IMG/VR virus record: IMGVR_UViG_2671180680_000003
Source of the DNA: a virus
Taxonomy: Duplodnaviria; Heunggongvirae; Uroviricota; Caudoviricetes
Direction: 5' to 3' (one strand)
Length of the DNA stretch: 4,616 nucleotides
The notes beneath the pieces were generated by a model. The model did no database searches and was not told the DNA's origin. It was given only the letters and a program-made list of their open reading frames with translations. The translations under genes and the position numbers were made by a program. Below, piece by piece: positions 1 to 4,616 of the stretch; within the stretch, counting starts at the first letter, position 1; every line of letters begins with the position of its first letter.

Positions 1-10
1 CAATGTGCAT

Positions 11-45
11 AAAAAAATCCGGAAACAAGTGAGCGTTTCCGGATT
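11..45 (-). terminator. Putative Rho-independent terminator downstream of the portal gene (minus-strand specific)
   Basis: Plus 16-26 (aatccggaaac) and 35-45 (gtttccggatt) form a perfect 11-bp inverted repeat around an 8-nt loop (27-34). On the minus-strand transcript the stem is followed by a U-run (complement of the A-run at 11-17). On the plus strand the stem is followed by cttac, so it would terminate only minus-strand transcripts. It lies about 30 nt past the portal stop (78-80). Confidence 0.5.
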
Positions 46-77
46 CTTACACAGCCACTGGATCGGTCAACTGATCC

Positions 78-1325
78 TTAACTGATCGGCATTACACCAC
101 CGGGACGCGGATTCATATCTTCCAGGTCGCGGCAGTCATTGGAAGAGTAAATTCCCCAGTTGATCCCGGTGGCGTAGGCTTCAAAACGGGACTTCATATC
201 CCCGCGCAGTAACGCCCCGGCGTTAAATTTGGCGTAATAAACGCCCTGCTTACTTTTTCGTACCAGTCCGGTGTTGATCCGCTGTTCGATGCGGGTCAGA
301 TACGGCACCAGTGAATAGTTGATAAATCCCAGCCCCAGCTCTTCGATATTGTTGAAGGTGGCGCGATCGGTGTTCTGCACCATGTGCAACGGCACCCGGA
401 ACAGACGACAGATTTCTTCCAGCTGAAACTTGCGGGTTTCCAGGAACTGACTGTCCTCGGCGTTCAGCGCCATCGACTTCCAGTCCAGCCCCATTTCCAG
501 AATCATCGGGCGGTGAGCATTGCCAAGCCCCGTGTGACACTCCTCAAAATCTTTCTTCAGACGCTCGTAAGCATCCGGCGTGAGCTTTTGTTCCGTACGC
601 AACACACCGGATGTCACCGCACCATTACTAAACAACCTGGCACCGTGCTCCTCGGTTGCCGCTGCCAGTGAAATGGCCTCACGCGCATACGCAATGGGAT
701 TCAGCCCGACAAGTCCATCCAGCGTCAGGGTGCGCACATGCCAGATTTCATTCTGGGTCAACACATCCACGGAACCATCCGGAAACGTCACCTGATAAAC
801 CGGCTGCCACTGGCTGTTCAGCTTCGGTTCCACACAGCCCGGATCTATCGGAAGAAGCTCCACCACTTCTCCCAGTGCCTTTACCTTGTAGGCGTAAAAA
901 TTCCCCCGTAGACACAGGCAGACAATAACCAGCTCCCAGAATTCCTGCGGTGTCATGTAGCCATTAGGTTTTGCCGAAACCAACTTATGCAGTCGTTCAT
1001 CCACCGCCCGTGTTTTCAGGGTACCGCTGATTTTGTAGAGACTGCAGGGCAGCATACCAACAGACTCTGCCAGCACCCTGACGCAAGAATAGACCGCCGT
1101 CAGGCGCATGGCCCGCTGGCTACTGATCCGCTTTCCGGTATAGGTGTCGTATGACAGCCCGATAGCATCAGCAGTTCTGCTGGCGTGGTCACCGGCACAT
1201 CGCTTTTTCGTTGAAATAATCCCGAAAAGAACACTATTTACCTCCGCCGACAGACTGCCGTGTACGGTCGAGATATCGCGCCACCAGCCACGACCAGAAC
1301 AGGCACAGCGCCCCGGCAACAACAA
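78..1325 (-). CDS. Phage portal protein, HK97-family-like; 5' boundary uncertain
   Basis: Longest ORF is 415 aa with TAA stop at 78-80. It carries the [22 protein letters not shown] motif that I recall as typical of the N-terminal region of HK97-family portals, and it sits directly downstream of the large terminase. The track start at 1325 is a TTG (followed by two more TTG codons) and the first 31 codons overlap the small membrane ORF in another frame. The first in-frame ATG is at 1109..1107 (M73), which would give 343 aa. I found no ATG/GTG/TTG between them. Confidence 0.85.
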
Positions 1326-1416
1326 AACCCGCCGGGGGATAAATCAGCCAGGCACCATACGCCAGCAAAAGCGCACCCAGCACGCCCACCAGAGGCGCGA
1401 GAATCAGCATGATCAT
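1234..1416 (-). CDS. Hypothetical small membrane protein (60 aa, two predicted transmembrane helices)
   Basis: ATG at 1416..1414 is preceded by a GAGG Shine-Dalgarno with 5-nt spacing (minus strand ...CTGAGGTAATTATG), 11 nt after the large-terminase stop. The translation [60 protein letters not shown] has two hydrophobic stretches separated by PPAG and a short charged tail. No family recognised; could also be a chance ORF in a hydrophobic-coding frame. Confidence 0.45.
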
Positions 1417-1427
1417 AATTACCTCAG

Positions 1428-3161
1428 TTAAAGCGAGCGGATCCCGTAGGACTCAATGTGGTCAGACAGCGTGTCTTCTTTCTCGTACAGCATGGCTCTG
1501 CCAACCGCCATAATCAGCGCAACTGCACCATCGATTTTGTTTTCCGCCTGCTCTTTGACGGGTTTCACCACATCATCGTTACCCGGCATGTTTTTGCCGA
1601 CCACGTTGCCGATACACCAGGTCATGATGGGATTGCCGTCATGATGAAAACGTCCCGATTCAATCGCTGCTTCCAGCTCTTTCATCGGATCGGACATATT
1701 GGTGAAGTTCTGGACGATAGTGACGGGATTCAGGTCTTCATCAGCAAGGTCATGTGACAACCCGGTCGCCCCGAAGGGGTCGATGGGTGACTCACTGACC
1801 GGGCTGATTTTGTTCGCCGCTTTGGCCTCCTCGAGGATGTAGCGATAATCCACCTCCGCACCATCGGTAACGGTCAGAACGCCCATTTCCACCCATTTCT
1901 GAAAGCGTTCGGCTGTCCGTCGATCTTCATTTTTCTCGACGCTGTACACCGTGTCATACGGTACCCAGAAACGCGGGGCCACACTGTAGTAATGCGTTTT
2001 ACCGTCAATCTCGCGGGTATAAAGTCGCGCCATGCTGTTCATATCCAGCTTACGCGCCAGGTCAAAGGCCAGAATGCACGGCTGCCCCTCGAACTGCTCA
2101 AGGGTCAGTGATTTATCCTCGCAGCTCTGCCAGCTCACCAAGTTGAAATACGCCGAACGCGCCGACACCCAGATATTGAGGTGTTTTGTTTTAAAGACGT
2201 TTGCCAGACGGGCGTTATTTTTCGCACGCTGCTGCTGACTTAACAAAAATTCGCGATAAACCGACACGCCAATATTTGGATTGGCTTTTTCCAGCACCTG
2301 CGGGCCGGTCCAGTCGTCACCTTCATCAACGGTATAGATGATCCCGAACAGTTCATCGTTAGGCACCGAGCCGTTGAGCATCTCGATGACTTCCCGCCGC
2401 TTGTCGTAGCACGGCCCCTCAATGTTGTACCCGGCGGTGGTGATGGCCCACATCAGTGGCTGACGTCGCGCCCCCATCCCGGTAAGCATTGTGGTATAAA
2501 GCGCATCGGTGGCATGCTCGTGATATTCATCAACCACGGCACAGTGGGGTGATGAACCATCACCTGGGTTGCCGATCAGCGGTTCAAACCGCGCGCCATC
2601 CTCCGGACGGTTCATGTTTGAGGCGTTAACCTCAATCCCGAACGCTTCCGTCAGCATGGGTGTGCGTTTACACATCAGTCGCGCCGGGCGAAAGACTTCC
2701 CACGCCTGTTTCTCTGTCGTGGCACCGGAATACACTTCCGCGCCAAACTCGTTATCACAGGCAAAACAATACAGGGCAACACCGGCAGAGATTGCTGATT
2801 TGCCGTTCTTACGGGGGATTTCGGTGTACACCTCCCGGAAGCGGCGCAACCGGGTGCCTTTATTGACCCAGCCAAACGCACAGCAGATCACAAATAGCTG
2901 CCACGGCTCCAGCGTGATGGGCATCCGTTTGAATGCCCACTCCCCCTTGGTGTGCGGCAACAGCTGAATAAATTTCGCGGCCCGTTCAGCCAGGTCCTTG
3001 TCGAAGCGGTAACGAAACGACTTACTTTTTTCCGCCATCAGGTCATCAAGATGGCGCTGGCAGGCCTGAATCACAAACTGGCAGGCAACAATCTTTCCGC
3101 GCACGACATCCCGGGCATACTGATTTGCAGCATTTACGTTGGGGTAAGATTTCCGGCTCAT
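1428..3161 (-). CDS. Phage terminase large subunit (ATPase plus nuclease)
   Basis: 577-aa ORF with ATG at 3161..3159 and TAA at 1430..1428. Has a P-loop-like segment ([14 protein letters not shown], residues about 114-127) and a Walker-B-like acidic patch ([10 protein letters not shown]). Size and position (after the small terminase, before the portal) match lambdoid/HK97-type large terminases. Its ATG overlaps the upstream stop as ATGA. Confidence 0.93.
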
Positions 3162-3554
3162 GATTCGATAATTTTCAGAAACGGGTTAGTGGCTTTCTTC
3201 TGCCCCGCCAGGCCAATCAGACGCTGGCGGCTGCTGGGGTCGAGTCCGAGCATTGCCCCCGTGCTGCTCATCTCGGACTCCTGTTCTTTTTTGGCGGTCA
3301 GCTCCGGATTTTTGACCCTGCCGCCCATTGCACCGGTGATGGTGTTGCCCTGTATGGCAATATTTTTCACGGCACGTCGCCAGAACTCATAGGCCACGCA
3401 CCACCGCTCAAGTACCGCCAGGTCAGTCACGCACAGCAGGCCCTGACCGCAGAGTTCTTTGGTTGTCAGTTGCCACATGATCGTGGCGAGAGGGAGATCT
3501 TCTTCAGCGAACCACTCTGGTGGCTCAACACCTTTGATGGGCGTAAAAACAGGT
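3158..3554 (-). CDS. Phage terminase small subunit, P27-family-like (C-terminal part; N-terminus hidden in the N-run)
   Basis: About 131 readable codons ending at TGA 3158-3160, which overlaps the large-terminase ATG. The C-terminal region ([39 protein letters not shown]) resembles the conserved tail of P27-type small terminases as I remember them. The part of track ORF 3158..4003 upstream of the gap is an artefact of translating N as X. Confidence 0.75.
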
Positions 3555-3881
3555 NNNNNNNNNNNNNNNNNNNNNNNNNNNNNNNNNNNNNNNNNNNNNN
3601 NNNNNNNNNNNNNNNNNNNNNNNNNNNNNNNNNNNNNNNNNNNNNNNNNNNNNNNNNNNNNNNNNNNNNNNNNNNNNNNNNNNNNNNNNNNNNNNNNNNN
3701 NNNNNNNNNNNNNNNNNNNNNNNNNNNNNNNNNNNNNNNNNNNNNNNNNNNNNNNNNNNNNNNNNNNNNNNNNNNNNNNNNNNNNNNNNNNNNNNNNNNN
3801 NNNNNNNNNNNNNNNNNNNNNNNNNNNNNNNNNNNNNNNNNNNNNNNNNNNNNNNNNNNNNNNNNNNNNNNNNNNNNNNNN
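3555..3881. other. Run of 327 N (assembly gap or masked sequence)
   Basis: Directly visible in the sequence. It breaks both the HNH ORF and the small-terminase ORF. All ORFs in the track that cross it are bridged by X and their across-gap continuity is not real evidence. Confidence 1.
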
Positions 3882-4239: not shown

Positions 4240-4616
4240 CTACTTAATGCACTGAGTGCGGATATACTCCTGTGCCCCTTCCAGTTGCATCTGCATCGTC
4301 ATCAGCCGCTCTCTGAGGGTGAAATAATCCCGTTCAGCGGTGTCTGCCTGTCGGGGGCTGGTTGCATTATCCACGCCGGAGGCGGTGGTGGCTTCACGCA
4401 CTGACTGACAGACTGCTTTGATGTGCAACCGACGACGACCAGCGGCAACATCAGCGCGCAGAGTTTCATTTTCAGCTTTCGCATCAGCTAACTCCTTCGT
4501 GTATTTAGCATCGAGTGCATTAACATCACGCTGTCTCTGCTGCATGTCAGTAATGGTTGCGTTCGCCAGCTTCAGTTCTCTTGCGTTTTTGTCGCGCTGC
4601 TCTTTGTAGGTAATGG
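4240..4616 (-). CDS. Rz: Spanin inner-membrane subunit Rz (i-spanin), 5'-truncated by the window edge
   Basis: The track ORF starts at an internal Met (4545) but the frame stays open to the window end. My hand translation of 4546..4614 gives ...[24 protein letters not shown], which continues without a break into [26 protein letters not shown]...[25 protein letters not shown]...[11 protein letters not shown]. This is near-identical to my recollection of lambda Rz. TAG stop at 4240-4242. The N-terminal TM segment would lie beyond position 4616. Confidence 0.92.
4302..4484 (-). CDS. Rz1: Spanin outer-membrane lipoprotein subunit Rz1 (o-spanin), embedded in Rz in another frame
   Basis: 60-aa [63 protein letters not shown] with a signal peptide plus lipobox (VVGC) and a proline-rich mature region, closely matching lambda Rz1 from memory. 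It has its own strong Shine-Dalgarno (minus strand AAGGAGTTAGCTGATG) and lies wholly inside Rz in a different frame. Confidence 0.9.

Follow-up and report, generated by a model that had tools for sequence, protein, structure and literature searches.

An IS4 element truncates the portal gene of a Shigella sonnei prophage remnant and carries a conserved leader hairpin proposed to shield its transposase gene

The DNA analyzed here (the window) is a 4,616-nt stretch from IMG/VR record IMGVR_UViG_2671180680_000003. Its first part carries, on the minus strand, a damaged portal gene followed by the left end of an insertion sequence, with a hairpin directly upstream of the transposase start. The original prediction, made from the letters alone, had read this hairpin as an intrinsic terminator placed right after the portal gene and had offered several explanations for it, among them a phage module boundary, late antitermination, a prophage remnant, and inserted foreign DNA. 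The features on which our argument rests are as follows.

95..1234, minus strand: portal pseudogene of the HK97 type (PF04860), with a GTG start at 1234..1232, ending, relative to the 413-aa phiP27 portal, at the codon of residue 380
80..78, minus strand: TAA closing the truncated portal ORF, lying in the inverted repeat of IS4; not the portal's native stop
1..94, minus strand: left end of IS4, first 94 nt, 100% identical to IS4; the window stops at IS4 nt 94
94..77, minus strand: left terminal inverted repeat of IS4, 18 bp, TAATGCCGATCAGTTAAG, of which 16/18 positions match the right end of the complete 1426-bp element
65..70, minus strand: predicted -35 hexamer TTGACC of the insG promoter
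43..48, minus strand: predicted -10 hexamer AAGAAT after TGT (extended -10), its last 3 nt being the first 3 nt of the hairpin 5' arm
16..45, minus strand: leader hairpin, a perfect 11-bp stem of AATCCGGAAAC (45..35) with GTTTCCGGATT (26..16) and an 8-nt loop, at IS4 nt 50-79
18..20, minus strand: GGA, a minimal Shine-Dalgarno-like core in the hairpin 3' arm, 7 nt upstream of ATG (alignment columns 45-47, invariant or nearly so in 26 relatives)
11..17, minus strand: run of seven U, the first two within the stem and five beyond it, also the spacer between GGA and AUG
1..10, minus strand: start of insG (IS4 transposase), ATG CAC ATT G, encoding MHIG..., with the ATG (10..8) at IS4 nt 85 and invariant in relatives

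IS4 left end and the damaged portal gene

Comparison with annotated elements identifies window 1..94 on the minus strand as the left end of IS4, none of it phage, and the suggestion that foreign DNA might be inserted here is thereby borne out. In a similarity search with window 1..1500 as the query, window 1..99 gave a 100% match to the IS4 in lambda 4B5. The matching region of this lambda derivative is annotated 'Transposase InsG for insertion sequence element IS4', and the record annotates a 1426-bp IS4 with insG, running from TAATGCCGATCAGTTAAGG to CTTAACTGACTGGCATTA and with a direct repeat of lambda DNA on both sides; S. sonnei records likewise name the IS4 ORFs as IS4. Window 94..77 is identical to the left repeat of IS4 and agrees with the end motif of the IS4 subgroup, -AATR- (PMC2266710). 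Phage homology ends at approximately position 95, from which about 1100 E. coli records (1101) and 19 phage records (phiP27, SfIV, SfII, SfI, ST64B) match onward, and the genes annotated in those matches are the portal, a small membrane protein (ymfR type), and the large terminase. Only the first 10 nt of insG fall inside the window, and in loci 100% identical to the window insG is a 442-aa ORF with PF13006 (Nterm_IS4) and PF01609 (DDE_Tnp_1). Beyond the window, in the sister locus L006, positions 13068..14493 are a 1426-bp IS4 that terminates in ...CTGACTGGCATTA, matching the right inverted repeat, and complete IS4 copies at the portal junction differ from the lambda 4B5 copy at 5/1426 positions. 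The portal-IS4 junction had no exact match among species-representative genomes.

The portal gene itself is damaged at both ends. Its ORF is 94% identical to the phiP27 portal over residues 5-380 of 413, and the nucleotide alignment with phiP27 breaks exactly between CCCGGTGGTG and TAATG, with the loss of approximately 33 C-terminal codons (residues 381-413). The TAA at 80..78, which had been taken for the portal's own stop, lies in the IS4 inverted repeat: the ORF extends 14 nt into this repeat, and its final four residues and stop, MPIS*, are encoded by IS4. Near the other end, one nucleotide present in phiP27 is missing between window 1173 and 1172 (GAACT-GCTG in place of GAGCTGGCGG), which shifts the frame after approximately 21 codons, so that the true N-terminus at the GTG is out of frame with the remainder. 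The region of this deletion is identical in seven S. sonnei loci matching the window exactly, and a separate 44-aa ORF appears because the deletion splits the portal start from the rest. As a result of the deletion and the loss of residues 381-413, an uninterrupted frame of approximately 413 aa, as expected of a functional PF04860 portal, is absent. Taken together, these alignments show IS4 interrupting the portal of a phiP27/SfIV/ST64B-like prophage in Shigella sonnei.

A 13-nt inverted repeat (window 93..105 and 164..176, TACACCACCGGGA and TCCCGGTGGCGTA, whose halves are 92% complementary with 58 nt between them) reaches precisely to the insertion point, and ...CGGTG also terminates several other IS4 left flanks. 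These may reflect a target preference or chance.

The prophage beyond the window

Sister loci were gathered through the window's exact 577-aa large terminase, which is present on thousands of contigs (4305 blocks of the genome collection), and the eight long chromosomes listed were examined. Seven of these S. sonnei chromosome loci match window 1..3554 at 100% identity, among them CP000038 (L010), which we take to be S. sonnei Ss046; the eighth, L009, has one gap. The gene order in these loci is DnaB, RusA, Q antiterminator, holin, lysozyme, Rz, HNH, small terminase, large terminase, a 60-aa protein, the portal fragment, and IS4. IS4 is complete, with a 442-aa InsG, in L006 and L007, and is split in L004 and L010 by a 1331-bp IS3-family insertion with HTH_Tnp_1 and rve domains.

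L010 14190..15520 (same in L004): nested IS3-family element in IS4, termini TGGATTTGCCCC...CCAGTCTA, with a 5-bp duplication GTGTC

Its termini are those of IS2, of which the nested element is presumably a copy.

The original prediction had proposed looking beyond position 1 for protease and capsid genes as opposed to host or IS sequence. What lies there in the genomes identical to the window is insG and then host genes: raiA-pheL-pheA-tyrA-aroF follow IS4 in L006-L008, and bamE-recN-nadK-grpE follow it in the other listed loci, and no protease, capsid, or tail genes were found after IS4 in the listed sister loci identical to the window. The host-gene side of the junction lies at locus coordinates of approximately 14500-21700 in L003-L010. 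Together with the frameshifted portal, this gene content supports the earlier suggestion of a prophage remnant.

The flanks of the element tell how the remnant came to end here. A simple insertion of IS4 is marked by a target duplication of 10-13 bp, which is absent at the portal junction: the portal-side flank ccggtggtg shares no duplication with either right flank, cagcccttgagctgccgtttttt (cagcccttgag...) or gctcattgagcacctttttt (gctcattgag...). As an exact duplication of 10-14 bp (mode 12) is found at 40/50 distinct sites of IS4-subgroup elements (flanks of loci L011-L090), its absence at the portal junction points to a scar of IS4-IS4 recombination or of IS4-mediated deletion or inversion. 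The missing duplication thus reflects a later rearrangement and is no argument against the element being IS4. Read from these flanks, the rearrangement took the head, the tail, and the attachment end of the prophage away from this place, and the prophage is, on the same grounds, a remnant ending at an IS4-mediated rearrangement. The same prophage-IS4 junction occurs in two chromosomal contexts among S. sonnei strains, which points to inversions or rearrangements by IS4 that differ from strain to strain. In further Shigella/E. coli genomes (L022, L079), the raiA-side flank likewise stands next to the left end of an IS4. A search through the near-identical InsG protein for an IS4 copy beside the missing portal end, protease, or capsid returned only two unrelated contigs.

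When these results are placed in context, the position holds no unusual phage terminator and no new module boundary, and IS4 at the end of a defective prophage is an already known, ordinary, and already annotated situation, here a known insertion sequence at a broken prophage end in an IS-rich Shigella genome. The proposed module boundary survives to the extent that the hairpin does mark a boundary, which is that of an IS and not of a phage module. The locus also carries a caution, in that a stop codon and a hairpin after a truncated gene can belong to the terminal repeat and leader of a mobile element.

Two other features of the window were noted in passing. Window 3555..3881 is a run of 327 N, and the sister genomes have 254 bases between the same flanks (end of the HNH gene to the start of the small terminase); either the mask is not length-preserving or this strain has approximately 73 extra bases. 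The phiP27 cos site lies in this gap between HNH and small terminase. Further along, a 101-aa ORF (4240..4545, minus strand) lies within a gene called as a 154-aa Phage_lysis product in sister genomes, and a 60-aa ORF in another frame (4302..4484, minus strand), whose N-terminus looks lipoprotein-like, is nested in it. From their layout, we take the two for an Rz/Rz1 spanin pair with one gene embedded in the other, as is ordinary in lambdoid phages.

The leader hairpin and a promoter-like site

The perfect 11-bp hairpin, the U-run, and the ATG at 10..8 on the minus strand are present as first described, and the structure is supported by folding statistics and by covariation in relatives. RNAfold adds a G.U pair to the stem, giving 12 bp with a 6-nt loop at -15.5 kcal/mol, and for the 100-nt stretch the folding energy is -35.5 kcal/mol, well below the -21.7 +/- 3.0 of shuffled sequences (z = -4.59; 0/200 shuffles as good). 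An 11-bp stem with 5 G-C pairs and an 8-nt loop, followed by UUUUU, has the form of an intrinsic terminator. A consensus terminator scan of the window did not flag the hairpin, likely because the upstream AAGAAT can pair with the T-run, so that the maximally extended stem consumes it. Rfam, searched at a permissive threshold, gave nothing at 1..100; its single match, a chance miRNA hit inside the terminase gene, scored 25 against a gathering threshold of 86 bits. The earlier view that the ATG has no visible Shine-Dalgarno sequence is not quite right, as GGA stands at 20..18, 7 nt upstream of the ATG, and is invariant in 26 relatives.

One phage record (L001) starts insG at a TTG (2026..2028, corresponding to window 26..28, minus strand), six codons before the ATG, for a product of 448 aa. 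This start at TTG 28..26 was rejected, since it lies in the hairpin loop at a position whose sequence differs in relatives, whereas the ATG is invariant; judged by this alignment, the 448-aa annotation is probably too long.

Conservation was assessed in 80 loci of InsG relatives (55-100% transposase identity), which range from Enterobacterales to Halomonas, Legionellaceae, Ferrimonas, and others, by comparing the 50 nt before the start codon in 26 distinct sequences. A hairpin lies directly upstream of the ATG in all of them (26/26). The stem is paired in 98.3% of cells, and changes on both sides that keep the pairing occur in 9/11 pairs. The covariation score is 0.562 versus 0.194 for shuffles, with 0/500 shuffles reaching the observed values; when the 3' partner is slid by 1-3 columns as a control, pairing drops to 27-59%, and RNAalifold agrees with the hairpin. 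Across the 11 stem pairs there are 16 G.U/U.G cells, and of 5 unpaired cells one is C.A and the others are U.U and U.C. As G.U cells far outnumber C.A cells, the constraint appears to act on RNA of the sense (transposase) strand rather than on duplex DNA. On this comparative evidence, the alignment shows the hairpin to be a conserved structural RNA element of IS4-subgroup elements.

The sequence context of the stem is conserved as well. GGA in the 3' arm, 7-9 nt from the AUG, is invariant in all 26 relatives, as is the AUG, and 5-8 consecutive U lie between stem and AUG in 23/26; the three without them are Halomonas elements. These (L070, L076, L080) keep the hairpin, with 3' arms containing GGGAAG, GGGACG, or GGGAAAGG, and have neither the U-run nor the -35/-10-like geometry described below. 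They appear, from their sequences, to be a natural variant in which termination has been dropped. It follows that termination is not universal in the subgroup, and occlusion of the Shine-Dalgarno sequence may be the core role.

A promoter-like site overlaps the hairpin. Its layout in the window is TTGACC, 16 nt, and TG-n-AAGAAT, spanning 70..43, with a weak -10 hexamer (4/6). In relatives, a -10-like hexamer nAnAAT, with positions 2 (A) and 6 (T) invariant, places its last three bases at the start of the 5' arm, and a TTGnnn -35-like hexamer stands 16 nt upstream of it. This geometry occurs at the same offset in 19/26 relatives and in 0-1/26 at each of 60 other offsets (-20 to +40); it is also found in 9/16 more distant relatives (55-61% transposase identity), most of them with different intervening sequence. 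The predicted transcription start, approximately 7 nt after the -10 hexamer, falls at window 38..35, and in silico folding indicates that transcripts starting at window 38 or further downstream lose the hairpin. Both an insG promoter and the escape of the native mRNA are thus predictions, from promoter-like geometry and folding in silico, respectively. A literature search found no data on transcription start, termination, or translation for insG.

Shielding of insG and comparison with related elements

It can be hypothesized from these observations that the hairpin shields insG from outside transcription while the native IS4 mRNA escapes, and we consider this rather probable. RNA started at any promoter upstream of IS4 would carry both arms and would form an intrinsic terminator just before the AUG; in any RNA that reads through, the stem would sequester the GGA core of the ribosome-binding site. 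Transcription from IS4's own promoter (-35 at 70..65, -10 at 48..43) would instead start at approximately 38..35, inside the 5' arm, and, as an mRNA beginning there would have no hairpin, it would be neither terminated nor occluded. At this locus, transcription would enter from the late operon of the prophage (Q, lysis, terminase, portal), whose orientation is that of insG. Q-modified polymerase from a late promoter, as in lambda, is expected to ignore an intrinsic terminator. With a Q antiterminator in the late operon, the terminator part may therefore be bypassed here, which would leave the translational block alone, although such a bypass is speculation on our part.

Several other roles for the hairpin can be weighed against this one. 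It could belong to the phage, as had been proposed, as a native terminator or module boundary that separates the portal from the remainder of the head module and that late antitermination passes. A canonical hairpin and U-run on the coding strand approximately 30 nt past a stop would suit such a role, as would the Q antiterminator gene upstream in the same operon. Yet stop, hairpin, U-run, and ATG all fall within 94 nt that are 100% identical to IS4, homology to phiP27 and its relatives ceases at window 95, and in these phages, which lack such a hairpin, the portal stop lies within a 23-nt overlap with the next head gene. IS4 identity, the gene overlap in phiP27, and the alignment break together refute a native terminator, to which we attach practically no probability. 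The palindrome could also work as DNA, as a protein-binding site or a cruciform in transposition, and its subterminal position (IS4 nt 50-79) would be compatible with this. The stem sequence, however, varies freely while pairing is kept, which argues against sequence-specific binding, and the excess of G.U cells (16 vs 1 A.C) is a strand asymmetry expected of sense-strand RNA and not of duplex DNA; moreover, DDE transposases of the IS4 family act on the terminal repeats of double-stranded DNA. A DNA-level role is accordingly very improbable, and both it and the native phage terminator are effectively excluded.

Two further accounts keep the hairpin as RNA of IS4, and each seems to us unlikely without being negligible. 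One is that the hairpin attenuates IS4's own mRNA, with a promoter upstream in or near the inverted repeat and with most native transcripts terminated or blocked, so that transposase stays very low. The conservation of hairpin, U-run, and GGA within the stem would fit, as would the low transposase expression typical of insertion sequences; against it, the sole conserved promoter-like geometry in the left end puts the -10 hexamer at the foot of the 5' arm (19/26), and only 49 nt separate the IS end from the hairpin, 18 of which are the transposase-binding repeat. The other account, which we hold to be no more and no less probable, gives the hairpin a translational role only: GGA and the AUG region would be occluded, and the U-run would be an A/U-rich spacer and ribosome-standby sequence. 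That the three Halomonas relatives keep a hairpin with a GGGAAG or GGGACG 3' arm in the lack of a U-run speaks for this account, and so do the invariant GGA and a U-run that coincides exactly with the spacer from Shine-Dalgarno sequence to AUG. However, 23/26 relatives keep 5-8 U right after a GC-cored stem, which is the textbook form of an intrinsic terminator, and the roles in termination and translation are not mutually exclusive. Within the proposal that the hairpin shields insG from outside transcription, both roles are combined. The explanation as a whole, namely, that IS4 truncates the portal and carries a conserved leader hairpin by which we infer insG to be shielded, is very probably the best one for this locus.

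A broader design may be considered in the light of where these elements insert. IS4-subgroup elements sit in palindromes resembling rho-independent terminators (flanks of L011-L090; L006 14494..14525; L010 15830..15860). Forty empty sites were reconstructed: 31 fold at <= -8 kcal/mol, an A-run lies upstream in 27 and a T-run downstream in 26, and 20 sites carry the two runs together. Palindromic target sites fit AAA-N20-TTT, an old consensus of IS4 targets. The flank on the portal side of the IS4 in the window does not belong to the terminator-palindrome type. It could be speculated that IS4-subgroup elements are terminator homers, in which the left-end hairpin replaces the terminator destroyed by insertion, locks the element's own ribosome-binding site, and overlaps its own promoter, such that only self-made mRNA is translatable; we put this forward tentatively, as an idea that may well prove wrong. 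If true, terminator targeting would always put IS4-subgroup elements directly downstream of transcribed genes. No description of such a combined homing and insulator design for IS4, nor of a role for the IS4 leader hairpin, was found in the searchable literature, and either may well be in older papers. The comparative result, a hairpin that covaries and holds an invariant GGA, a promoter-like site overlapping it, and insertion targeted to terminators, is of modest value for the biology of insertion sequences.

Both halves of the locus have close counterparts in known systems. The HK97-type phages phiP27, SfIV, SfII, SfI, and ST64B have the same order of HNH, small terminase, large terminase, 60-aa membrane protein, and portal, at 83-94% nucleotide identity; phages of the phiP27 type have a 413-aa portal followed at once by protease-type and capsid genes, whereas the portal in the window is frameshifted and cut at residue 380 and no head module follows. 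On the other side of the junction, IS4 of E. coli/Shigella (insG; IS4 family, IS4 subgroup) shares with window 1..94 its inverted repeat, its leader hairpin, and the start of insG. The copy at this junction departs from the usual IS4 in lacking a target duplication and in having flanks from different places (prophage portal versus chromosomal terminator sites), and in Ss046-type strains it carries the 1331-bp nested insertion, unlike plain IS4.

The principle proposed here for the IS4 leader hairpin is already established for IS10, IS50, and IS200. IS4, IS10, and IS50 are all members of the IS4 family. For IS10 and IS50, a 'fold-back inhibition' of read-through transcripts was reportedly described by Davis, Simons and Kleckner in 1985 and by Schulz and Reznikoff in 1991. 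In these elements, the inverted repeat that covers the translation start is complete only in transcripts begun outside, and the element's own transcript starts between the two halves. IS4 resembles them in having the ribosome-binding core (GGA) in one arm, and promoter-like geometry and folding in silico would place the start of its own transcript between the arms; it differs in that neither IS10 nor IS50 is known to have a U-run terminator at the corresponding structure and in that the IS4 start site is a predicted one. IS200 is guarded from transcription that impinges on it by a rho-independent terminator at its left end, and another of its stem-loops sequesters the Shine-Dalgarno sequence (PMC4513863). 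The Y1 HUH transposase of IS200 is unrelated to the DDE transposase of IS4, for whose hairpin we infer the function. The likeness between the two lies in a terminator just inside the left end and upstream of the transposase start, and in a ribosome-binding site sequestered in RNA structure, but where IS200 uses two separate stem-loops and an antisense RNA, IS4 would have one hairpin for both jobs, with the promoter overlapping it.
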